From an uncultured Actinomycetes bacterium (lineage in GTDB: Bacteria > Actinomycetota > Thermoleophilia > Gaiellales > JAICJC01), in contig OY969568.1 of assembly GCA_963701125.1 (NCBI GenBank), positions 2,071,510 to 2,135,509 on the forward strand: a DNA stretch of 64,000 nucleotides, read 5' to 3'. Made by a program: the position numbers and the translations under genes. The notes beneath the pieces are model-generated. The model did no database searches, was not told the DNA's origin, and worked only from the letters and a program-made list of their open reading frames with translations. Each line of letters begins with the position of its first letter. Within the stretch, counting starts at the first letter, position 1. Shown piece by piece: positions 11,238 to 23,995 of the stretch.

Positions 11238-11335
11238 TGCGCGCCTCACCGTCCGCGGCCGAATTGTAAAGACGAACGTCCGCCGACTCTGCCTGCGTCC
11301 GCGCGTTCGTCCTTCCCCCCTTCACAGAGGAACTC

Positions 11336-11815
11336 ATGACTCGCAAACGCATCGTGCGTACGACCGTGGCCGCGGCCGTCGGTCTGCTCGTCGCGGGATC
11401 GGTCGCCTATGCGGCCTGGACCGTGAACGGCGGCGGCACCGGCACGGCGTCCGCCACCAGCGCGGTCGCGCTCACGCTCTCCGCCGGTACGCCCTCGACC
11501 TCGCTCTATCCGGGTGGCTCCGCCGACGTCGACACGACCGCCGCGAACTCCAACCCGTTCGCCGTCGCGGTCTCGAGCGTCGACCTCGACACCACCCAGG
11601 GCACGAACGGCTTCTCGGTCGACGCCGGACACTCGGGCTGCAACCTGAGCTCGCTGTCGTTCACGACCGCCACCGACGGCTGGACCATCCCCGCCAACTC
11701 GTCGATCGACATCGACGCCGCCGGCGACATCGCGATGAGCACCGCCGCCAACGACTCTTGTCAGGGCGCCACGTTTACCGTGTACCTGACTGCCACTGCA
11801 GCCAGCGCGTCCTAG
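11336..11815 (+). CDS. Secreted TasA/camelysin-like putative fibre subunit (acidic)
   Basis: GAGGA RBS; signal peptide ending AYA-AW; LYPG, NxNP, two Cys, C-terminal CQGATF; mature part has 10 Asp and no Lys/Arg. Confidence 0.65.
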   Translation: MTRKRIVRTTVAAAVGLLVAGSVAYAAWTVNGGGTGTASATSAVALTLSAGTPSTSLYPGGSADVDTTAANSNPFAVAVSSVDLDTTQGTNGFSVDAGHSGCNLSSLSFTTATDGWTIPANSSIDIDAAGDIAMSTAANDSCQGATFTVYLTATAASAS

Positions 11816-11825
11816 GCGGGATCTG

Positions 11826-14063
11826 ATGCTCGCCCGTCTCCGGGGCACGCCGCGCATGCGGTGCGGACTCCTGGTCATCGCCGCCCTTCTGGGCGGCGCG
11901 ACCACCGCATCCGCGTCGTGGCATCTGCCCGGAGACGGGGTGGGCGTCGCCCAGGCGAGCGTCGACTTCCACGCGCCGGTCGTGACCGCCGCGACGGTGG
12001 CGCCGCCCGGCATGACCGCCGCCGGAGGCGCGGTTGCGTCCGGCGGCCAGTTCGTCGTCTACGCGAACGTGGTCGACGTCGGCGTCTCGGGCGTCGCCTG
12101 GGTGCAGGCGAACGTCTCGGGCATCGAGACCGGCGCAACCGCGCTCTCGCTCTCGCCGTGCATCTCCGGCTGTACCGTCGGTGGCACGACATACGGCTGG
12201 TCGACCGCGTCCCAGACCGCCACCGCAGGCCTTGCCCAGGGCACGAAGACGTACACGATCTGGGGCCAGGACAACGCCGGCAACACCGGCGCGCCGGCAT
12301 CGCACTCGGTCACCGTCGACTCCACCCCGCCGACCATCTCCGCCGCCGTCGTCGCCATGGCGGCGCCGGCCACCGCCGGGTTTGTGCACTCGTCGGGCAC
12401 GTATGCGGTGTACGCGAAGGCGACCGACGGCGGCTCGCCCGCGAGCGGCATCGCGACCATGACTGCGAACGTCTCGGCCATCACGCCGGGGCAGACGGCC
12501 GTCGCGCTCACGACCTGCACGGTGTCCTGCACCGCGGGCGGCGTCACCTACGCCTACAAGAGCGCGTCGCTCACCGCGGGCTCGCCGGCAGACGGCAGCA
12601 AGAGCTTCTCGCTCACCGCCACCGACCCCGCGGCGAACGTGCAGACGACGAGCTTCGCGGCGACCGCCGACAGCACCCCGCCCACCGTCACCGCAGCGGT
12701 CGTGGTCAACACCACGCCGAGCTACGTCGGCTACACCAAGCCGGGCGGCGCCTATGTCGTCTACGCCAACGCGGCCGATGCGAACGTCTCCACGGTCACC
12801 GCGAACGTCTCGGGCCTCACGTCCGGCCAGACGGCTCTCACCCTCTCGGCCTGCTCGAGCGGCTGCACCCAGGGCGGCGTCACCTATGCCTACAAGAGCG
12901 CGAGCCAGACCGCCGGAGCCTCGATCGCGCAGGGTGCAACGCCGTTCTCGGTGACGGCGACCGACAAGGCGGCCAACGCAACGACGGGCTCCTACTCGGT
13001 GACCGTCGACTCGACCGGGCCCACCGTCTCCGGTGTGGCCATCGCGAACACGACGACGAGCGTCTCGGGCCTGATCCGCAAGAGCGGCGCCTACATCGTG
13101 TACGCGAACGCCGCCGACGCCCTGGGTATCACGTCGGTCAAGGCCAACGTCTCGACGATCACGAGCGGGCAGACCGCGCTCGCGCTCTCGGCCTGCACGA
13201 CGTCGTGCACGGTGGGCGGCGTCACCTACGGCTACAAGAGCACCTCGAAGACCGCGTCATCGACGCTCGCCGCGGGCTCGGTGGCGTTCTCGGTCACGGC
13301 GACCGACGGCCTCTCCAACACGACCACGGCGAACGGCTCGGTCACGGTCGACAACACGGTGCCCGCGCTCTCGGCCGAGGCGATCGCAACCGTTGCGACC
13401 GGGGTCCCGGGCTACATGAGCCAGGGGCACACCTACCTCGTGTATGCGAGCGCAACCGATGCGAGCGGGGTCTACTCCGTGAGCGCAAACGTCAGGAATC
13501 TGACGACCGGCGCGACCGCCGTCGCGATGCCGGCATGTGCGACCGGCTGCACCGTCGGCGGCGTCACCTACGGCTACGCGAGCGCCGTCGAGACGGGCAA
13601 GGCCTCGATCACCGCGGGCAGCAAGGCCTACACCGTCACGGTGACCGACCGCGCGGGCAACACCGCCAGCATCTCGCCGACCGTGACCATCGACGACACG
13701 GCGCCGACGATCGCGATCACCTTCCCGACCGCGGCCTACAACGGCGGCTGGTCGGCGGGCTGCAGCACCCCGTCCACCGAGGACATCTGCGGCACGGTCA
13801 GCGACGCGACGAGCGGCGTCTCGGGCGTGCAGCTGAGCCTGCGCCAGGCCACGTCGCCGAGCCTCTACTGGAACCCGGGCACGAGCTCGTTCTCGTCGGC
13901 GAGCGAGGTGCTGATGTCCTCGCCGCTCGCGCTGCCGAACTGGACGTTCCCGGCGTCGGCCGCCTGGTTCACCAGCGGCTCGTCCTACACGATCCGGGCC
14001 GTCGCGACCGACGGCGCCGCGAACACCGCCACCACATCGACGACCTTTACCTTCAAGCCCTGA
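11826..14063 (+). CDS. Large secreted protein with five Ig-like repeats, putative tip adhesin
   Basis: Signal peptide ending ASA-SW; five ~115-aa Ser/Thr-rich repeats each with CxxxCTxGGxTY and D-x-T-x-P linkers; distinct last domain. Confidence 0.8.
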   Translation: MLARLRGTPRMRCGLLVIAALLGGATTASASWHLPGDGVGVAQASVDFHAPVVTAATVAPPGMTAAGGAVASGGQFVVYANVVDVGVSGVAWVQANVSGIETGATALSLSPCISGCTVGGTTYGWSTASQTATAGLAQGTKTYTIWGQDNAGNTGAPASHSVTVDSTPPTISAAVVAMAAPATAGFVHSSGTYAVYAKATDGGSPASGIATMTANVSAITPGQTAVALTTCTVSCTAGGVTYAYKSASLTAGSPADGSKSFSLTATDPAANVQTTSFAATADSTPPTVTAAVVVNTTPSYVGYTKPGGAYVVYANAADANVSTVTANVSGLTSGQTALTLSACSSGCTQGGVTYAYKSASQTAGASIAQGATPFSVTATDKAANATTGSYSVTVDSTGPTVSGVAIANTTTSVSGLIRKSGAYIVYANAADALGITSVKANVSTITSGQTALALSACTTSCTVGGVTYGYKSTSKTASSTLAAGSVAFSVTATDGLSNTTTANGSVTVDNTVPALSAEAIATVATGVPGYMSQGHTYLVYASATDASGVYSVSANVRNLTTGATAVAMPACATGCTVGGVTYGYASAVETGKASITAGSKAYTVTVTDRAGNTASISPTVTIDDTAPTIAITFPTAAYNGGWSAGCSTPSTEDICGTVSDATSGVSGVQLSLRQATSPSLYWNPGTSSFSSASEVLMSSPLALPNWTFPASAAWFTSGSSYTIRAVATDGAANTATTSTTFTFKP

Positions 14064-14065
14064 TC

Positions 14066-14506
14066 GTGCGCTTCTTCCTCTCCACAGCCGTCGTGCTCGC
14101 CGTCACCGCGGGCGTCGCCCTGTCGTCGGCCGCCCATCCCGGGCCCGCGCACACAGGCCGCCTCGAGCTGCTTGCCTCGACGAAGAAGCCGGTGACCGTC
14201 ACGGGCGTGCCGGTCACGGGCCTCTATCCGGGCGCCTCCAGATCGCTCACGGTGACGGTCAAGAACCCGAACACCATCAGGATCAAGATCGCGACCATCA
14301 AGACCAAGGTGACGAAGACCTCGGTCGCCGGCTGTTCGACCGTCGCCCAGAACCTGACCGTGACGCACCCCAAGGCGGGTCTCAAGATCGCGCCGAAGAA
14401 GAGCGCCAAGCTCGTCCTGACCGTGATGATGCCGACGAGCGTCGCAGACGCCTGTCAGGGCGCGAAGTTCTCGATCTCGATCTCGATCAGGGCGATCAAG
14501 GGCTGA
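14066..14506 (+). CDS. Basic paralogue of the TasA-like subunit
   Basis: GTG 14066; hydrophobic N-terminus; LYPG, KNPN, two Cys, CQGAKF; 14 Lys + 5 Arg vs 2 acidic residues. Confidence 0.7.
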   Translation: MRFFLSTAVVLAVTAGVALSSAAHPGPAHTGRLELLASTKKPVTVTGVPVTGLYPGASRSLTVTVKNPNTIRIKIATIKTKVTKTSVAGCSTVAQNLTVTHPKAGLKIAPKKSAKLVLTVMMPTSVADACQGAKFSISISIRAIKG

Positions 14507-16193
14507 CGCCCGCGGCCGCGGTGGCCGCGATGCGGCCGTCGCGCAGCTCGAGCACCTCGTCGGCGGCCTCGAGCCCGCCCGTGCGGTGGGTGATGATGAG
14601 GACGCCGATGCCGGCGCCGCGCGCCGTCTCGAGCAGCTCCCGGGTGAGCGCCGCCGCCGCCCGGGCGTCGAGGTGGGCGGCCGGCTCGTCGAGCACGAGG
14701 AGGCGCACGTCGGCCAGCAGCGCGCGGGCGAGCGAGAGCCGCTGGCGCTGGCCCCCGGAGACGCCCTCGCCGCCCTCGCCGAGCCGCGTGTCGAGGCCCT
14801 CGGGCAGCGCGGCCACCCAGTCGGCGGAGTGTGCGCGGCGCAGAGCGTCGGTGAGCTCCGCGTCGGTCGCGGCCTGCCGGGCAATGCGCAGGTTCTCGCG
14901 GATGCTCGTCGGGAACAGGTGGGCCTCCTGCCCGCCGAGGCCGACGATCGCGCGGACGTCCGCCTGGGCGTACCTGCGCAGGTCGATGCCGTCGAGCTCG
15001 ACGCAGCCGGCGTCAGGGTCGCGGAAGCGCACGAGCAGGTTCGCGAGCGTCGTCTTGCCGGCGCCGCTCGGCCCGGTGAGGGCCACGATCCGGCCGGGCC
15101 GCAGGTCGAGATCGATCCCGTCGAGCACCCACGGTCCGTCGCCGTAGCGGGCTCGTACGCCGCGCAGCCCGACGTGTCCAGCTCCCACCGGTGCGACCGG
15201 AGCCTCGGGATCGACGACCGGGGGCGTGCGATCGGTCAGCTCGAGCACCCGCCCGGCCGCGTGCGCCGTTGCGGCCAGGTGGGCGGCGGCGGCCGGGAGC
15301 GGGCGCACGGCCTCGAATGCCGCGAGGGCGAGCAGCGCGAGCATCCCCAGGTAGACGCCCGAGAGCGCGCCTCCCGACACGGCCGGGATCGACACGAGCA
15401 GCACGCCCGCCACGGCCAGGCCGGCGAGCGCCGTGACGACGCCCTCGGCGACGGCGGCGACGAGCGCGGTCCGGCGGCGATGGCCTCCGAGCTCTGCGTC
15501 GCAGGCGCCGACACGCGCGGCCGATCTGCCGGCGGCGCCGAACGCGGCCAGCTCGGGCGCGCAGTCAAGCGCCTCGACCAGCTCGGCCGACAGGCGCGCG
15601 CGGGCCGGCGCCTCGCGGTGCGCGCTCGAGCGGCCGGCCAGTGCCCCGGCGGCCGGCAGCGCCACCCCTGCGGCGAGCAGGAGCGCCGCGAGCACGAGGG
15701 CGGCGACCGGCAGGGCGAATGCGGAGACGCCGACGGCGATCGCCCCGGCGAGCAGCGCCACCGCCATCGGGCCCGCCGCCCGCAGCCACAGATTCTGGAG
15801 CTCGTCGACGTCGGCGACGAACCTGCTCAGGAGGTCGCCGGTGCGCACGCCGGGCAGGCCGGCCGGGACGAGCGGCTCAAGCCGGGTGAAGAGGCGCGCG
15901 CGGACCGTTCCGAGCGCGCGCAGCGTGGCGTCGTGCCCCGCCAGCCGCTCGAGATAGCGCAGCACCGCGCGGGAGACGCCGAAGAACCGGACGGCGACGA
16001 TCGCAACCGAGAGCTCGAGGATCGGGGGACGCTGCGCGGCGCGCGAGATCAGATATCCCGACGTCGCCAGCAGGCCGATGCCCGCGCCGATCGCGAGCGC
16101 GCCGAGCACCGCCGCCGCCAGCAGCCGGCCCGCGTGCGGGCGCGAGAGCGCGGCGATCCGAACGACCGGCGAGCGGGTCTGCGCCACGCTCAT
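14496..16193 (-). CDS. cydC: Thiol reductant ABC exporter CydC
   Basis: [39 protein letters not shown]; ATG 16193 overlaps cydD stop. Confidence 0.92.
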   Translation of the reverse strand: MSVAQTRSPVVRIAALSRPHAGRLLAAAVLGALAIGAGIGLLATSGYLISRAAQRPPILELSVAIVAVRFFGVSRAVLRYLERLAGHDATLRALGTVRARLFTRLEPLVPAGLPGVRTGDLLSRFVADVDELQNLWLRAAGPMAVALLAGAIAVGVSAFALPVAALVLAALLLAAGVALPAAGALAGRSSAHREAPARARLSAELVEALDCAPELAAFGAAGRSAARVGACDAELGGHRRRTALVAAVAEGVVTALAGLAVAGVLLVSIPAVSGGALSGVYLGMLALLALAAFEAVRPLPAAAAHLAATAHAAGRVLELTDRTPPVVDPEAPVAPVGAGHVGLRGVRARYGDGPWVLDGIDLDLRPGRIVALTGPSGAGKTTLANLLVRFRDPDAGCVELDGIDLRRYAQADVRAIVGLGGQEAHLFPTSIRENLRIARQAATDAELTDALRRAHSADWVAALPEGLDTRLGEGGEGVSGGQRQRLSLARALLADVRLLVLDEPAAHLDARAAAALTRELLETARGAGIGVLIITHRTGGLEAADEVLELRDGRIAATAAAGVSP

Positions 16194-17863
16194 GTGGACG
16201 CCCCTGCGAGCTCGCCCGCGCGGATGCGGCCCGCGTCCATGCGGACGATGCGGTCGGCGACGCGGGCCGCGAGCTGCTCGTCGTGGGTGATCACGATGAC
16301 GGTGCGGTCGCGCGGCATCGCCGCGAGCGACGCGGCGATCTCGGCGCAGGCGCCGGGGTCGAGGTTCGTCGTCGGCTCGTCGAGCAGCAGCAGCGGGGCG
16401 TCGCGCAAGAGCGCCCGCGCGAGCGCCACGCGGCGCAGCTGTCCGGCCGAGAGCCCCGCGCCGCCGTCGCCGACGCGCGTCGCGTATCCGGCCGGAAGCG
16501 CGCGGATGAACCCGTCGGCGGCTGCGGTGCGCGCGGCCGCGGCCACGTCTGCGTCGTTGGCCTCGGGCCGTCCGAGCCGGATGGCGTCGGCGATCGTCCC
16601 GGCCGGCAGGTGCGGCCGCTGCGGCAGCCATGCGACCTGTGCGCGCCACTGCTCGCGGTCGATCGACGAAAGGTCGCGGTCGCCGTAGAGCACGCGGCCG
16701 GCCTGCGCTCGCTCGCTGCCGAGCAGGAGCCGGACGAACGTCGTCTTGCCCGCACCCGAGGGGCCGACGATGGCCACCCGCTCGCCGGCGGCGACGGTCA
16801 GGTCGACGTCCGAGAGGGCCGGCGCGGTCCGCCCCGGATAGGTGAAACTCACGTCCACCAGGGTGATCGCGTGCATGCCTCGTGGCGGTGCCGCTCCCGT
16901 CGTCGCCTCGGGGTCCGGAAGCGCTTCGAGCTCGGCGAAGATCCGCTCCGCGGCCGCCATGCCGTCGGTGCTCGCGTGGAACTGCGTGGCGGCGGCGCGC
17001 AGCGGCAGGTAGAGCTCGGGCGCAAGCACGAGCACCGTGAGCGCCTGCGCAAGCGCGATGCCGCCGTCGTCGAGCCGGATGCCGATCTCGACCGCGACGA
17101 CCGCCGTGCCCAGCGTCGCCGCCAGCTCGAGCACGAGCGCCGAGAGAAACGCGATCCGAAGCGTCGCCATCGTCTCGCGGCGGTAGCCCTCGGAGGTCTC
17201 GGCGATCCGACCTGCCTGTGCCGTTCCGCGGTTGTACGCGCGCAGGGTCGGCAGACCTTGGACAACGCTCAGGAAGTGGCTTCCGAGCTCTGTGAGGGCC
17301 GCGTGCCGCGACCGTGCCCGACGGCCCGCCTCGCGCCCGACGAGCACGCCGAAGATCGGGATGAGCGGCAGCGTCGCCGCCATGATGAGCGCGGACTCGG
17401 CGTCGATGAATGCGACCCAGGCGAGGATCGAGAGGGGCACGACGGCGGCGAGCACAAGCTGGGGCAGATAGCGGCTGAAGTATGGGTCGAGCGCGTCGAT
17501 CCCGTCCACCGCGGCCGTGGCGATCGCCCCGGTCGACCGTCCCTCGGCGCCCGCACCGAGGATGGCGGCGACGAGCCTGCGGCGCAGCGCGCGCGTGGTG
17601 GCCGCGGCGGTCAGGTCTCCGCCGGCCTGGAAGGCCCAGGCCAGAAGGCCGCGCAGGACGGCTGCCGCCGCGAGCAGGGCCAGGGCCGGGCCGACCGCCC
17701 GCAGGGTGCGATGGCCGAGGAAGACGCGCGCGATCACGTCGCCGATGAGCGTCGCCTGGAGGATCACGACGACGGCGGTCGCGAGCGCGAGCAGCCCGCA
17801 GGCGGCCAGGAACCGCCGCACCGCGGGGGTGGCGGCCGTCAGGCGCGGATCAACGCCCCGCAC
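16190..17863 (-). CDS. cydD: Thiol reductant ABC exporter CydD
   Basis: [39 protein letters not shown]. Confidence 0.92.
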
Positions 17864-17866
17864 GCG

Positions 17867-18958
17867 TCAATCGCCCGTGGGGGCGCCTGTGGAGCCGTTG
17901 CTGGGGCCCGAGAGCATCTCGATCGGGCTCTTGATCGGCCCCATGTCTTCGCGGCCGATGCGGTGCCGGAACACGTAGTAGGTCCAGCCCTGGTACACGA
18001 GCACCACCGGGGTGAGCGAGAGCGCGACGACCGTCATGACCGCCAGCGTGTAGTGGCTCGACGAGGCGTTCCAGACCGTCAGGCTGTAGGCCGCCTTCGT
18101 GCTCGACACCATCACCCGCGGGTACATGTTCAGGAAGATCGTCGCGGTGATGAGGCCGATCGTGAGCGTCGTCGTCGCGAAGGCCAGCCCGTCGCGGCCC
18201 GCCCGCACCATGAACGGCAGCGCGAGCGCGAACCCGACCGCCGAAAGCGGGATGACGCCCGGGACGACGCCCTTGCCGTTGCCGGACACGGCGTTCCCGT
18301 ATGTCCATGCGAGGAACGCGAAGACGAGCACCGCCGAGAGGAGCGACAGCTGCCTCGCCGCCGACCGGGCGCGGTCGACGAGCTCGCCCTTCGTCTTGAT
18401 CGAGAGGTACACGGCGCCGTGCAGCGTGAACAGCGCGAGCGTCATCAGGCCGGCGACGAGCGAGTAGGGGTTCAGGAGCGTGAAGAAGTTCCCGGTGAAC
18501 TCCCCCGACCGGTCGATCGGGACGCCCTGCACGATGTTGCCGAACCCGACCCCCCAGAGCAGCGCGGGCAGCGCCGAGCCGAAGAAGATCGCCCGGTCCC
18601 ACCATGCCTTCCACGTCGGCGAGTCGTGCTTGCCGCGGTACTCGAAGGCGACCCCGCGGATGATCAGCGCGAACAGGATCAGGAACAGGGCCAGGTAGAA
18701 GCCGGAGAACAGGGTCGCGTACCAGTCGGGGAACGCGGCGAACGTGGCCCCGCCGGCGACGAGGAGCCAGACCTCGTTCCCGTCCCACACCGGTCCGATG
18801 GTGTTGACGATGACACGGCGGTCGGTCTCGTCGCGGCCGAGCAGGGGCAGCAGGATGCCGACGCCGAAGTCGAACCCCTCGAGGATGAAGTAGCCGATCC
18901 ACAGGACCGCGATCAGGCCGAACCAGAGCGTCTGCAGGTGCCAGTATCCGCTGTGCAT
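17867..18958 (-). CDS. cydB: Cytochrome bd oxidase subunit II
   Basis: LEGFDFGVG, IGPVWDGNEVW, RGVAFEYR, YQGWTYYVFR. Confidence 0.95.
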   Translation of the reverse strand: MHSGYWHLQTLWFGLIAVLWIGYFILEGFDFGVGILLPLLGRDETDRRVIVNTIGPVWDGNEVWLLVAGGATFAAFPDWYATLFSGFYLALFLILFALIIRGVAFEYRGKHDSPTWKAWWDRAIFFGSALPALLWGVGFGNIVQGVPIDRSGEFTGNFFTLLNPYSLVAGLMTLALFTLHGAVYLSIKTKGELVDRARSAARQLSLLSAVLVFAFLAWTYGNAVSGNGKGVVPGVIPLSAVGFALALPFMVRAGRDGLAFATTTLTIGLITATIFLNMYPRVMVSSTKAAYSLTVWNASSSHYTLAVMTVVALSLTPVVLVYQGWTYYVFRHRIGREDMGPIKSPIEMLSGPSNGSTGAPTGD

Positions 18959-18970
18959 CGCGTCCTCCTC

Positions 18971-20365
18971 TCAGTACGCCATCGCGAGGTTGCCAGAGCC
19001 GGCCGCCTCGTCATCGGTGGGCTCGGGCGGAACCTCCTTGGCGTAACGGAACATCAGCCATCCGTCGATCACGCCGAGCACCGTGTAGAGCAGCGTGAAC
19101 CCGATCAGCGACGTCGCCACCTCCCACGCGGGCACGCTCGGCGACACGGCGTTCTTCGTCAGGAGCAGGCCCTGGACGACCCACGGCTGGCGCCCCATCT
19201 CGGTGAAGATCCAACCGGCGGTGTTGGCGATGATCGGAAGCGCGATCGCCCAGGTGGTCAGGCGCAGGAACCGGCGCGAGGTCTCGAGCGTGCCTCGCCA
19301 CAGCAGCCACATCCCGTAGGCGCAGATCAGGATCAGGACGACGGCGATCCCGGTCATGATCCGGAACGCCCAGTAGGTGACGCCGATGACGGGCCGGTAG
19401 TCGCCGGGGCCGTACTTGGCCTGATCCTGGGCGTTCAGCGTGTTGATGCCGTCCACCTTCCCGCCGAGCGAGTTCGTGGCGAGCACGGAGAGCAGGTCGG
19501 GGATGCGGATGTCGAACGACGATCGGCCGGGATGCTCCGAGAACGGCGCGACGGCGAAGAGCGAGAACGACGCGTGCGAGGTCGTGTTGTAGAGCGCCTC
19601 GGCGGCGGCCATCTTCATCGGCTGCTGCCTGGTCATCAGCTGGGCCTGGCCGTGGCCGACAAGCGAGGTGAAGAGCGACGCCGCCAGCACGATCGGCAGG
19701 GCGAGGCGGATCGCCTTGCCGAAGAGCTCGGTCTCCGATCCGCGGGCGAGGTGCCATGCCGACACCCCGGCGACGAGCATGCCGGCGGTCATCACGGCGG
19801 CGCCGATCGTATGCGGGAAGGCGTAGAGCAGCGTCGAGTTGGTCAGCACCTCGAGGATGCTCGTCAGGTGGGCGTGGCCGGTGGCCGGATCGATCTTGTA
19901 GCCGACCGGATGCTGCATCCACGAGTTGGCGGCGAGGATGAAGTACGCCGACAGGTTGGTGCCGATGGCGACCGTGTAGATGGTCGCCAGGTGGACGCGC
20001 TTGCCGAGCCGGCCCCACCCGAAGATCCACAGGCCCAGGAACGTCGACTCGAGGAAGAAGGCCGCCAGGCCCTCCATCGCCAGCGGCGCGCCGAACACGT
20101 CGCCGACGTAGCGCGAGTAGGCCGACCAGTTCATGCCGAACTGGAACTCCTGCACGATTCCCGTGACGACGCCGATCGCGAAGTTGATCAGCATCAGCTT
20201 GCCGAAGAACCGGGTCAGACGCAGGTAGGCGGGGTCGCCGCTTCGGTGCCAGAGGGTCTGGAACACGGCCACGAGCCAGGTGATCCCGATCGTGATCGGG
20301 ACGAAGATGAAGTGGTAGATGGTGACATCGCCGAACTGCAGGCGGGCGAGCTGGAGGGCGCTCAC
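18971..20365 (-). CDS. cydA: Cytochrome bd oxidase subunit I
   Basis: LARLQF..YHFIF, QEFQFGMNW, ANSWMQHP, QPMKMAAAE, GWIFTEMGRQPW. Confidence 0.95.
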   Translation of the reverse strand: MSALQLARLQFGDVTIYHFIFVPITIGITWLVAVFQTLWHRSGDPAYLRLTRFFGKLMLINFAIGVVTGIVQEFQFGMNWSAYSRYVGDVFGAPLAMEGLAAFFLESTFLGLWIFGWGRLGKRVHLATIYTVAIGTNLSAYFILAANSWMQHPVGYKIDPATGHAHLTSILEVLTNSTLLYAFPHTIGAAVMTAGMLVAGVSAWHLARGSETELFGKAIRLALPIVLAASLFTSLVGHGQAQLMTRQQPMKMAAAEALYNTTSHASFSLFAVAPFSEHPGRSSFDIRIPDLLSVLATNSLGGKVDGINTLNAQDQAKYGPGDYRPVIGVTYWAFRIMTGIAVVLILICAYGMWLLWRGTLETSRRFLRLTTWAIALPIIANTAGWIFTEMGRQPWVVQGLLLTKNAVSPSVPAWEVATSLIGFTLLYTVLGVIDGWLMFRYAKEVPPEPTDDEAAGSGNLAMAY

Positions 20366-21215: not shown

Positions 21216-23879
21216 TCACCATGTCTTGAGCGCCGTTGGCGCGGCCGAGTCCTCGACCCGGATCCGCGCGTCGACGGCGAGGCAGCCGTTCGGTCGGGCC
21301 ATGACCGGGTTCAGGTCGAGCTCGACGATCTGATGGAAGTCGGACGCAAGCTGGGCCAGGCGCCGCACGAGATCGGCCAGGGCGCGCGAGTCTGCCGGAG
21401 CCGCGCCGCGCATGCCGGCCAGGAGCGCCCCCGCCTTGCCGGCGGCGACGAGCTGGTCGGCGTCGACATCGGTCAGCGGCGCCGGCGCGAACCGGATCTC
21501 GCCCAGGAGCTCGGCCATCGTGCCGCCCATCCCGAACGCCACGACCGGCCCGAACACCGGGTCCTGCATCGCCCCCGCCATCACCTCGACGCCCCCGCGC
21601 ACCATCGGCTGGATGACGGCCGGGAAGCCGACGGTCGTGGTGGCCGCCGCGAGCTCGGCGGGCGTGCGCACGTCGAGCACGACGCCCCCCTTCTCGGTCT
21701 TGTGCACGCCCGCGGCGCCGGCTTTCACGACGACGGGGAACCCGAGCGCCTCGGCCGCCGCGAGCGCCTGCGAGCCGGTCTGCACGAGCTGCTGCGCCGC
21801 GGTCGGGATGCCGTATGCGGCCAGGAGCCTCTCGACCGCATCGGGGTCGAGCCAGCCCTCTCCGCCGGCCGCGAGCGTGGCGGCGACGATCTCCTCGCCG
21901 GCAGCCCGATCGACCTCGGCGTCGCGCACGCGCCCGATGGGCTGGCGCAGCCATTCGGCCCGCTCCGCCACCCGGCCGAGCACGCGGGCCGCCGTCTCGG
22001 GATACGCGAAGCACGGCAGGCCCGCCGCGATCCGCGTGCCCGCGCCGCCGGTCACCACGATCAGCACCGGCTTCTCCGCGTCGGTGGCCTTCGCCGCCGC
22101 GGCGATCGCGGCGATCACGTCGTCGGGATCGGCGACGGCGGTCGCGGTCACGAGCACGATCAGCGCATCGACGTCCGGGTCGCCGAGCACGAAGGGCGTC
22201 ACCGCGCCGAACACCTCCGGGGTCGCCGATCCGATGATGTCGACCGGGTTCAGCACGGTCGCCTCGCCGGACACGAGCTGGCTGATGTGCTCGCGCGTGT
22301 GCTGCGCAAGCTCCGAGAGCTCGAGGCCCGCGTTCGAGCAGGCGTCGCCGCACAGGATTCCGAGGCCGCCGGCATTCGTCAGGATCGCGGTGCGGCGGCC
22401 GTGAGGAAGCGGCTGCGAGGCGAGCACGTCGGTCAGGTCGAGCAGCTCCTCGAGCGTCGCGGCCCGAAGCACACCGGACTGGCGGAACAGGGCCTCGACC
22501 GCGGCATCCGAGCCCGCCAGCGCGGCGGTATGCGACTGGGCGGCGCGCGACCCGATCGGCGTGCTGCCGCCCTTGAGCGCGACGATCGGCTTGGTGCGCG
22601 ACACGCGCCGGGCGATCCGCCCGAACCGGCGCGGGTTGCCGAACGACTCCAGATAGAGGGCGATCGTGCCGGTCGGCTCGTCGTCCTCCCAGTGCTCGAG
22701 CAGGTCGTTCGACGACACGTCGGCCTTGTTGCCGACCGAGACGAACGACGAGACGCCCAGGCCGCGCCGCTCGAGGCCCTCGAGCACCGCGAGCCCGACG
22801 GCGCCGCTCTGCGAGGAGACGGCGACCCGCCCGGGCGCGAAGCCGGCCTGCGAGAAGGTCGCGTTCAGGTGCACGTCGCTCGAGGCGAGGCCGAGGCAGT
22901 TCGGGCCGATCATCCGCGCGCCGTAGCTGCGCACGAGCGCGAGCAGCTCGCGCTCGGCCCGCGCGCCCTCGAGACCGGTCTCGGCAAAGCCGGCGGTGAT
23001 CACGCAGACCGCCCGCACGCCGGCGGTGAGAGCCGACGCGACGGCAGCCTGCACCGCCGGTGCGGGGACGCAGATGACGACCAGGTCGACCTTCTCGGGC
23101 AGCTCCTCGATCGCGTGCGCCGCGGGGACGCCCGCGACCGGCTCACCTGACCTGTTGATGGGAAAGGCGCGCCCGGTGAAGCCGCCCTCGACGATGTTGC
23201 GGAAGACCGCTCCCCCGATTGCACCCGGCCGGGCGGACGCGCCGATGACGGCGACCGTCTTGGGCCGGAAGAACGCTCCGAGCGACTGGTCGATGGCGGA
23301 GTGGTCGCGCCTGTCGACCGCCTCCAGGAAGCGGTCGCTCGCCGCGATCTGCAGGCGCACCTGGATCTCGCCGCCCTCGAATGTCCGCTCCACGTCGTAG
23401 CCGGTGTCGGCGAACACCTGCAGCATGGCGTCGTTGTCCGCCATCACGTCGGCCACGAGCGTCTCGACGCCCGCGCGCGCGGCGGCGGCGGCGAGCTGCT
23501 CGACGAGCCGGGTGCCGACGCCGAGCCCCTGCATGTCCGTGGCGACGGCGAACGCCGCCTCCGCGAGACGGGGATCGCGGAGCCGGGCGTAGCTTGCCAC
23601 CGCCACCACCGCCTCGGCGCCGTCCTCGCCGCGCAGCACGCCGATCAGCGCGCCGCGGGTCGCCCAGTCGGGTTCGAGCAGGCCGTCGAGGATGTCGGGC
23701 CCGATCCGGCGCGTCCCGTGGAAGCGCAGATAGCGGCTCTCCTCGTCGAGCGCCGCGAAGAAGGCGAGCACGGCGCCGGCGTCGGCCGGTGCCGGCGGTC
23801 GCAGGCGCAGCGTCCGGCCATGACGAAGAATGACGTCGCGGACATGCGAACCGGTCGGTGAGTCGGGGGGACTCGACAT
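21216..23879 (-). CDS. GNAT + NDP-forming acyl-CoA ligase-like fusion (Pat-type)
   Basis: N-terminal GNAT (YLRF, AEAAFAV..QGLGVG), VAVIGAS, GPNCLG, SVGNKAD, SHTAAL, TNAGG, ATP-grasp HKTEKGGV, ELDLNP. Confidence 0.88.
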   Translation of the reverse strand: MSSPPDSPTGSHVRDVILRHGRTLRLRPPAPADAGAVLAFFAALDEESRYLRFHGTRRIGPDILDGLLEPDWATRGALIGVLRGEDGAEAVVAVASYARLRDPRLAEAAFAVATDMQGLGVGTRLVEQLAAAAARAGVETLVADVMADNDAMLQVFADTGYDVERTFEGGEIQVRLQIAASDRFLEAVDRRDHSAIDQSLGAFFRPKTVAVIGASARPGAIGGAVFRNIVEGGFTGRAFPINRSGEPVAGVPAAHAIEELPEKVDLVVICVPAPAVQAAVASALTAGVRAVCVITAGFAETGLEGARAERELLALVRSYGARMIGPNCLGLASSDVHLNATFSQAGFAPGRVAVSSQSGAVGLAVLEGLERRGLGVSSFVSVGNKADVSSNDLLEHWEDDEPTGTIALYLESFGNPRRFGRIARRVSRTKPIVALKGGSTPIGSRAAQSHTAALAGSDAAVEALFRQSGVLRAATLEELLDLTDVLASQPLPHGRRTAILTNAGGLGILCGDACSNAGLELSELAQHTREHISQLVSGEATVLNPVDIIGSATPEVFGAVTPFVLGDPDVDALIVLVTATAVADPDDVIAAIAAAAKATDAEKPVLIVVTGGAGTRIAAGLPCFAYPETAARVLGRVAERAEWLRQPIGRVRDAEVDRAAGEEIVAATLAAGGEGWLDPDAVERLLAAYGIPTAAQQLVQTGSQALAAAEALGFPVVVKAGAAGVHKTEKGGVVLDVRTPAELAAATTTVGFPAVIQPMVRGGVEVMAGAMQDPVFGPVVAFGMGGTMAELLGEIRFAPAPLTDVDADQLVAAGKAGALLAGMRGAAPADSRALADLVRRLAQLASDFHQIVELDLNPVMARPNGCLAVDARIRVEDSAAPTALKTW

Positions 23880-23995
23880 TCGCGAGAGGCTAAGCCGGGA
23901 TGCCGACCCGAGCATCCGTGGCATCGCCTAACCCTGTTTCGGGCAACTACCGAGCAGGAGACTAGACGGGTCCGGCCGAATGCGAAAGCGCGGGT

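Follow-up and report, generated by a model that had tools for sequence, protein, structure and literature searches.

Three adjacent genes in the genome of an uncultured Gaiellales bacterium may encode the parts of a cell-surface fibre that assembles without a chaperone. The genes, numbered 1 to 3 here, lie in a 64,000-nucleotide stretch of DNA that we call the window (assembly GCA_963701125.1, contig OY969568.1, positions 2,071,510 to 2,135,509), and comparison with relatives shows them to form a conserved module of three predicted part types: a short N-terminal stretch joined to a beta-sandwich body (gene 1), the stretch with immunoglobulin (Ig)-like repeats and no such body (gene 2), and the body without the stretch (gene 3). 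We read the module as a chaperone-free strand-donation fibre in which an anchored gene-3 base would carry a gene-1 shaft capped by the Ig-like repeats of gene 2, a reading in which we place roughly even confidence. An earlier annotation, made from the letters of this DNA alone and called the original prediction below, had proposed a fibre of this kind at 11336..14506, and its gene descriptions and coordinates proved correct.

Three part types and a recurring N-terminal stretch

The mature product of gene 1 contains 10 aspartates and no glutamate, lysine or arginine, in agreement with the composition given in the original prediction, and sortase-type isopeptide polymerisation is excluded for this predicted mature form because it has no lysine. 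No twin-arginine motif is present in gene 1. In an AlphaFold2 model built on a 92-sequence alignment (mean predicted local distance difference test score, pLDDT, 92.6), a signal helix (residues 3-29) is followed by an unpaired segment (30-46, pLDDT 72-76) and a beta-sandwich (47-157, pLDDT 94-98), the stretch being unpaired to its own domain. Gene 1 combines in this way two features expected of a donor-strand subunit, a separable conserved extension at the mature N-terminus and a beta-sandwich domain. Across the alignment of 92 relatives, P59, N71, C102, C142 and Q143 are invariant, and in the stretch the conserved positions are W28 (64 W, 17 F), G32 (88), G34 (91), G36 (63 G, 19 A) and A38 (58 A, 16 G). 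The conserved residues alternate with polar ones along 11 positions, a pattern that would suit a strand in extended form, packed tightly on one face, and not a loose linker.

The original prediction had also claimed that gene 2 begins, after its signal peptide, with the same N-terminus as gene 1 and that it lacks the LYPG/CQG body. Both points hold. The signal peptide of gene 2 covers residues 1-30, and 15 residues following the AxA cleavage site, W-x3-G-x-G-x-G-x-A, are common to the two products, and this post-signal region is the only part that aligns between them, the pairwise match being weak (E 0.17, 14/38). Within the genus, the gene-2 orthologues seen all have the motif AS/W-x-x-P-G-x-G-x-G-x-A-x-A-S (the slash marking the cleavage site), and the stretch motif also stands on the large third protein of distant loci. 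The Ig-like repeats of gene 2 match Pfam Big_13 (E 2.7e-13, four stretches). Their number varies within the genus, and the gene-2 orthologues of L018 (genome G020) and L016 (genome G013) have open frames of 863 and 909 residues from first start codon to stop, compared with 745 in the window.

A hidden Markov model (HMM) of signal peptide plus stretch, built from gene-1 relatives, was run against the 36,508 stop-to-stop open reading frames (ORFs) of the genome and matched only four at E<0.01: gene 1 and three genes of a single second cluster (C1:3462084-3464108, C1 being the genome's one contig). Gene 2 was missed by this model. The recurrence of the stretch in the genome appears to exceed chance, and a genome-wide search for further stretch proteins, which the original prediction had suggested, yielded this cluster of three stretch-positive genes. 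The cluster consists of four genes and holds the same three part types, in the order A-B-A-C (classes as defined below). Its class B protein is arginine-rich and without the stretch, its class C protein has about 240 residues, and its gene order is the one most common in Microbacteriaceae.

Gene 3 shares the body of gene 1, as had been proposed on the strength of common LYPG and CQGA.F motifs. BLASTP aligns the two at E 6e-11 with 28/107 residues identical, including LYPG, the cysteine pair and CQGA.F, and a comparison of class profiles places gene 1 residues 37-158 on gene 3 residues 34-146 (probability 99.1%, E 6.8e-19). We take the two genes to be paralogues on these alignments. Residues 27-36 of gene 1 find no counterpart in gene 3 in the profile comparison, which bears out the proposal that gene 3 lacks the strand. 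The predicted basic character of gene 3 (19 lysines and arginines, two acidic residues) also agrees with our counts, which give 14 lysines, 4 arginines, 1 aspartate and 1 glutamate in the mature form and 19 lysines plus arginines in the whole product.

For the comparison across genomes we defined three classes: class A has the stretch and the body, class B the body only, and class C the stretch and then 250 or more residues in which the body is absent. As classed by stretch and body, the terminal part types are a donor-only class C and an acceptor-only class B, and the stretch is modular, being present on two unrelated bodies (A and C) and absent from the paralogue B. Lack of synteny in relatives had been named beforehand as one of the results that would refute the original prediction; the order 1-2-3 is the same in eight of nine 12-kb loci of the same genus, a gene-3 match being missing in L018 only. 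Among 20 distant loci, as labelled by a class-calling script that is wrong for at least L034 and L049, the full set of classes is found in 11 and the A-B-C order in 8; two of these loci, L041 and L047, belong to genomes flagged as unpublished. Of 52 named Actinomycetota loci, chosen by the class-A motif and overlapping with the same-genus genomes already counted, 49 have class A, 47 class B, 41 class C and 35 all three; the most frequent orders are A-B-A-C (12 loci) and A-C-B (11 loci, the kin of the window). The three-part set of the original prediction recurs, then, both within the genus and among the named loci. Class C payloads vary from locus to locus (Big_13, Big_3, PKD, CHB_HEX_C_1/Fn3_assoc or no Pfam match), and five gene-1 relatives combine stretch and body with a Laminin_G_3 domain. 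Frameshifts or assembly errors split gene 3 or gene 2 across frames in L016 and L021. In two related genomes a type IV pilin-like gene (...GFTLIELMVV...) adjoins the A-B-C module on the reverse strand (L032:5183-5704 and L036:5428-5925), which could be chance or a link between two surface systems.

The gene-1 family is large and unnamed. Word-indexed relatives number 339, and all source names among the 120 listed are "hypothetical protein"; at representative level (clusters at 50% identity) there are 1449 family clusters at E<=1e-3 and, with the stricter limit of E<=1e-10, 395. No convincing match to Pfam or NCBIfam was found for genes 1 and 3 or for the 92 relatives, and neither database has a family model of its own for them. 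The family is present in 36 of 401 sampled Actinomycetota genomes, with named carriers in Gaiellales, Microbacteriaceae, Micromonosporaceae, Nocardioides, Solirubrobacterales and Thermoleophilia, some of them cultured (Pseudolysinimonas yzui CGMCC 1.16548, Cryobacterium spp., Actinoplanes sp. NPDC049265 and Nocardioides endophyticus JCM 18532).

Anchors on class B and a proposed order of assembly

Class B, the acceptor-only paralogue, is shown by its predicted features to be the part that bears the means of attachment to the cell. In the window's lineage, the gene-3 orthologues have a median net charge of +15 (85 matches), and the stretch motif occurs in only 5 of these 85, the four that were read being gene-1-like tail matches. 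For the class B protein of locus L047 (also public as P0356), 41 of 43 relative clusters carry LP[FT]TG (one LPFSG) followed by a hydrophobic segment and a basic tail (RRRS), the other two carry near-variants of this sorting signal, and none of the 43 has the stretch; the net charge of these proteins is near zero. The same A-B(LPFTG)-C locus is also present in genome G303, where two sortases are encoded. Class B of the cultured Pseudolysinimonas and Cryobacterium (Microbacteriaceae) begins with a long hydrophobic segment that lacks an AxA site and reads as an uncleaved membrane anchor. It is because the LPFTG signal or an N-terminal transmembrane segment sits on class B that we take this class for the cell-proximal end. 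The original prediction had made gene 3 the base, which by its positive charge may anchor to anionic wall polymers or extracellular DNA. The anchored base stands, with wall and membrane anchors that had not been foreseen, and the charge is a feature of some lineages only, since net charge in A-B-A-C loci ranges from -18 to +31.

Under the fibre reading, the three genes would form an operon for a Sec-exported surface fibre assembled by N-terminal strand donation and needing neither chaperone nor usher nor a dedicated peptidase. Each stretch would dock, in the form of a beta-strand, on the body of the neighbour on the cell side, and the order would be B <- A(n) <- C. Class B would be fixed to wall or membrane, in the window's lineage through its strong positive charge or through the hydrophobic segment at its N-terminus; class A subunits would form the shaft; and class C, with its stretch ahead of an Ig-like, Fn3-like or lectin payload, would cap the free acceptor end, gene 2 displaying five Ig-like repeats there. 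An anchored end that only accepts would leave growth to the distal end, where the addition of class C would stop it.

The same modular logic and the same anchoring evidence would serve a surface complex of fixed size, in which anchored B docks a single partner, A or C, through the stretch and so displays Ig-repeat proteins on the wall. It is only from motifs in common with B that class A is given an acceptor role. Against such a complex, class A keeps the stretch together with a body that has the invariant motifs of B, and because it keeps both, nothing is visible that would stop A from joining A. Many loci, moreover, have two class A paralogues (A-B-A-C in 12 of 52), which is typical of major and adapter pilins. 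We consider a non-polymeric complex unlikely.

A different view dispenses with docking altogether and holds the products to be three co-regulated but independent secreted or wall beta-sandwich proteins, for example glycan- or surface-binding ones, with the stretch as a processing, export-quality or linker element recognised by a common enzyme. The body models as a complete, generic sandwich whose best fold matches are LEA_2/TMEM106B-like, and the conserved face of the stretch consists of glycine and alanine, both of which would suit this view. Two signals count in favour of the fibre reading, as hints at a meeting of stretch and body, but must be weighed here as well. The A and C stretches of one locus resemble each other more than those of different loci (mean BLOSUM score 37.9 vs 29.5; 6.45 vs 5.71 identities of 16), a likeness reached in 15 of 20,000 permutations over 11 loci, and it could also come from a lineage-specific enzyme. 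Co-variation in a set of 133 non-redundant class A sequences links positions 30 and 29 of the stretch to positions 124 and 127 of the body (z 5.9 and 4.8, rank 5 and rank 23 among all pairs), both of the latter on the long strand 122-134. Both signals are weak and would also fit a shared processing enzyme. However, no conserved enzyme gene accompanies the module, the flanks differ between loci and there is no link to SipW; the strict period of two over 11 residues speaks against a flexible linker; and independent proteins would leave unexplained why it is the stretch-less paralogue that bears the anchors. Independent proteins are, in our judgement, improbable.

The locus, and the question of TasA and SipW

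The fibre proposed here draws on a locus (Table 1) in a G+C-rich window (about 72%) of a genome that is a single contig of 4.28 Mb, whose closest named relatives are metagenome-assembled genomes of Gaiellales and Thermoleophilia. The three genes are co-directional and tightly packed, with spacers of 10 nt (genes 1 and 2) and 2 nt (genes 2 and 3). The start of gene 3 is most likely the GTG at 14066, 2 nt past the gene 2 stop, because orthologues begin MRFFLST. Third-codon-position G+C in genes 1-3 is 0.90-0.94, and second-position G+C is raised by products rich in alanine, threonine, serine and glycine. A consensus scan found no sigma-70-like promoter for gene 1, and scans of the locus for promoters, terminators and DNA tandem repeats gave nothing useful.

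Table 1. Positions in the window of the three genes and of the features described in them.
Feature	Position	Strand	Remarks
Shine-Dalgarno-like AGAGGA	11326..11331	+	4 nt ahead of gene 1 start; read from sequence
Gene 1, class A subunit, 159 aa	11336..11815	+	signal peptide, N-terminal stretch and beta-sandwich body; proposed shaft
Gene 1 signal peptide, aa 1-26	11336..11413	+	ends AxA; A24 in 86/92 and A26 in 80/92 relatives; helix 3-29 in model
Gene 1 N-terminal stretch, aa 27-41, A-W-T-V-N-G-G-G-T-G-T-A-S-A-T	11414..11458	+	W28, G32, G34, G36 and A38 conserved; proposed donor strand
Gene 1 body, aa 46-157, beta-sandwich	11471..11806	+	LYPG, N71, C102, C142-Q-G-A; pLDDT 94-98
Gene 2, class C subunit, 745 aa	11826..14063	+	signal peptide, stretch and Ig-like repeats, without class A body; proposed distal cap/adhesin
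Gene 2 N-terminal stretch, aa 31-46, S-W-H-L-P-G-D-G-V-G-V-A-Q-A-S-V	11916..11963	+	directly after ASA
Gene 2 five Ig-like repeats, aa 47-622, 113-118 aa each	11964..13691	+	47-67 identical residues per pair; CxxxC pair in each
Gene 2 distinct C-terminal Ig-like domain, aa 623-745	13692..14060	+	Big_3_3 E 4e-7
Gene 3, class B subunit, 146 aa	14066..14506	+	hydrophobic N-terminus aa 1-23, body aa 34-146, without stretch, pI (isoelectric point) 10.8; proposed cell-proximal base

The flanks hold an Asp-Al_Ex/TrkA_C transporter gene on one side and a convergent cydDCBA set on the other, and the locus has neither a SipW-like peptidase nor a DUF5305 protein. The absence of SipW and sortase from the window (C1:2071510-2135509), which the original prediction had remarked on, is borne out; the candidates are all elsewhere on C1, with a SipW-type gene at C1:3709121 (the only one in the genome, 1.6 Mb from the window), a sortase at C1:2778407 and LepB-type peptidases at C1:4224572 and C1:2061914. 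Pfam scans of genes 1-3 and eight neighbours found no PapD-like or DUF916/DUF3324 chaperone domain, Pfam scans of genes 1-3 found no WxL domain, and none of the three products ends in a sorting signal. The convergent genes at 14508-20365 on the reverse strand are a cydDC pair of ATP-binding cassette (ABC) transporter genes and cytochrome bd oxidase subunits II and I, and the stop codon of gene 3 (14504-14506) overlaps the longest reverse-strand ORF, 14496-16649, which holds the first ABC gene. Further along, 21216-23924 on the reverse strand encodes a 902-residue fusion of GNAT acetyltransferase, CoA-binding, succinyl-CoA-ligase-like and ATP-grasp domains, a layout that we take to be that of Pat-type protein lysine acetyltransferases.

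The original prediction likened gene 1 to TasA and CalY, and the family could be a divergent member of TasA/CalY (Peptidase_M73), processed by SipW and assembled in the TasA manner with a TapA-like helper. A comparison of full-length profiles between the gene-1 family and 15 actinobacterial TasA-like proteins is suggestive (probability 83.6%, E 8e-6) and lines up the alanine at -1, the aromatic residue at +2, a proline and an asparagine 12 residues later (Pro-x11-Asn); TIGR04088 matches 2 and PF12389 matches 1 of the 92 relatives, all weakly (E 0.088 for PF12389); and the genome does have a SipW-type peptidase. A search of the Atlas with a gene 1 homologue returned "hypothetical protein" clusters only, apart from one weak PF12389 lead, a look-alike cluster (score 0.85) in which 27% of members carry that domain and which is a lead only. 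With signal peptides trimmed, however, the profile similarity collapses to a probability of 1.3% (E 0.042). PF12389 does not match genes 1 and 3 at E<=1, and a genome-wide search of this genome (G000) found no PF12389 gene at E<=1e-8. True PF12389 TasA-like genes, found in 14 of 151 actinobacterial genomes, lie within 2 kb of a SipW-type gene in 12 of the 14, whereas the SipW-type peptidase (TIGR02228) occurs in about 10 of the 36 family-positive genomes (best E<=1e-14, an approximation to the cut-off) and in 124 of 401 genomes overall (over the cut-off), the same share, and the family-positive genomes G198 and G250 have no SipW-type match at all.

The body has about 110 residues; Foldseek of the gene 1 model against the PDB returned nothing at E<=1e-3; a wide fold search gave generic sandwiches only, with no known donor-strand pilin and no TasA among the 50 matches listed; PapD-like chaperones appear among the fold matches as weak, generic hits; and the family profile has no solved relative among PDB sequences at E<=10. 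No Taf pilin is among the fold matches listed, and the libraries may not hold TafE. We do not class the family with TasA, the full-length profile match vanishing when signal peptides are trimmed, and dependence on SipW was rejected on genome distribution; the TasA/CalY kinship of the original prediction finds no support, and we regard a divergent, SipW-processed TasA as very improbable. A distant common origin with TasA is possible, because the -1 alanine, the +2 aromatic residue and the Pro-x11-Asn spacing do align.

Two observations concern SipW itself. The single SipW-type peptidase that the genome search turned up (TIGR02228, 66.9 bits; G000:C1:3708587-3710764, locus L001:967-3141) is a 566-residue fusion with DUF5305, which corresponds to TafD and TafG of the archaeal Tafi in one protein; just upstream is a gene for a 135-residue secreted protein with a signal ending AYA/FT, and this locus may be a separate Tafi/TasA-like system. 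In the small genome G215, a weak family match (C4:12657-13121, E 2.8e-9) and a strong SipW-type gene (C4:14225-14713, E 2.5e-33) are 1.1 kb apart, the only adjacency of family and SipW seen; the pair may be an intermediate between the gene-1 family and SipW-dependent families.

Known fibres and what the family may mean

In chaperone-usher pili the subunits are incomplete Ig-like domains complemented by an N-terminal extension whose conservation has a period of two, and the caps lack one of the two functions. Genes 1-3 resemble them in the period of the extension and in having proposed terminal parts without one function; they differ in that no chaperone or usher gene and no outer membrane are present and that the polarity of the model is reversed. 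Sortase-assembled pili offer a likeness in the LPFTG base of one class B lineage, comparable to a basal pilin, but in the window's module the proposed shaft and tip are without a sorting signal, lysine is absent from mature gene 1 and no sortase lies at the locus.

The closest parallel is archaeal. In the model given for haloarchaeal Tat-fimbriae (Tafi), the TafC tip donates its N-terminal strand, TafE/TafA form the shaft and TafF is an anchor with a pilin-like acceptor region and a membrane segment (PMC11821415), and polymerisation of TafE by strand donation is reported from electron cryomicroscopy (PMC12337348). Tafi is likewise a linear strand-donation fibre with neither chaperone nor usher, and its modelled order is the one that we propose for genes 1-3 (PMC11821415, PMC12337348). 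The tip protein TafC is described as carrying an outward laminin-G-like payload, and the gene-1 relatives fused to Laminin_G_3 match that layout (PMC11821415). Tafi differs in being archaeal, in its twin-arginine (Tat) export in haloarchaea, the motif for which is missing from gene 1, and in having loci with a SipW-like peptidase and a DUF5305 protein, both absent here; the predicted anchors of class B are instead LPFTG, an N-terminal transmembrane segment or charge.

Among bacteria, the TasA-TapA-SipW system of Bacillus subtilis (with CalY) shares with our reading of gene 1 a Gram-positive, Sec-exported beta-sandwich whose donor strand is the mature N-terminus with an aromatic residue at +2, and assembly without chaperone or usher. 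TapA, which according to an AlphaFold-Multimer study shares only its N-terminal strand with TasA, is a helper that primes TasA, and the proposed assembly of genes 1-3 resembles this priming (PMC9674648). Unlike TasA, the family has no PF12389, no sipW at the locus and no link to SipW across genomes, its body is about half the size, the face of its stretch is made of glycine and alanine, and it has what appears to be a dedicated, anchored acceptor-only paralogue. The Elr/WxL pilus of Enterococcus faecalis is described as a product of donor-strand exchange whose base is anchored by sortase and whose tip adhesins are modular (bioRxiv 10.64898/2026.10.17.759780), and it is like our model in being a Gram-positive donor-strand fibre with such a base and tip. 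Elr is reported, however, to need a membrane-anchored DUF916/DUF3324 chaperone, while genes 1-3 have no WxL or chaperone domain, and the polarity is opposite, with an acceptor-only tip and a donor-only LPxTG base; Elr is also reported as confined to Bacillota, apart from a small Actinomycetota satellite among the chaperones (bioRxiv 10.64898/2026.10.17.759780).

The original prediction knew of no description of the architecture in this group. This stands for the family and for Actinomycetota, in that we found in the literature searched no description of the gene-1 family or of a strand-donation fibre in Actinomycetota, with the reservation that supplementary homologue tables may list relatives; it does not stand for the layout of tip donor and base acceptor as such, which has already been modelled for Tafi (PMC11821415). 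Tentatively, and with a little less than even confidence, we propose that genes 1-3 stand for a self-assembling strand-donation pilus family of Actinomycetota, new to the literature and with thousands of members, a bacterial counterpart of Tafi that would dispense with pilin sortase and dedicated peptidase as well as with chaperone and usher. In polarity it would run opposite to chaperone-usher and Elr pili, with an acceptor-only base held by one of at least three interchangeable anchors (LPFTG, an N-terminal transmembrane segment or a polycationic surface) and growth at the distal end until a donor-only payload cap is added.

Recent finds of fibres of the strand-donation type come from Bacillota (TasA, Elr/WxL), from bacteria of the candidate phyla radiation (Pam) and from several archaea. 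If the fibre reading is true, a minimal kit of three genes for a surface fibre is present in abundant soil actinobacteria, with a bearing on adhesion and aggregation in soil, and thousands of "hypothetical proteins" would gain a function. The cultured carriers make this reading directly testable, and the module would offer a simple system in which to study how fibres assemble without a chaperone and how their polarity is set.

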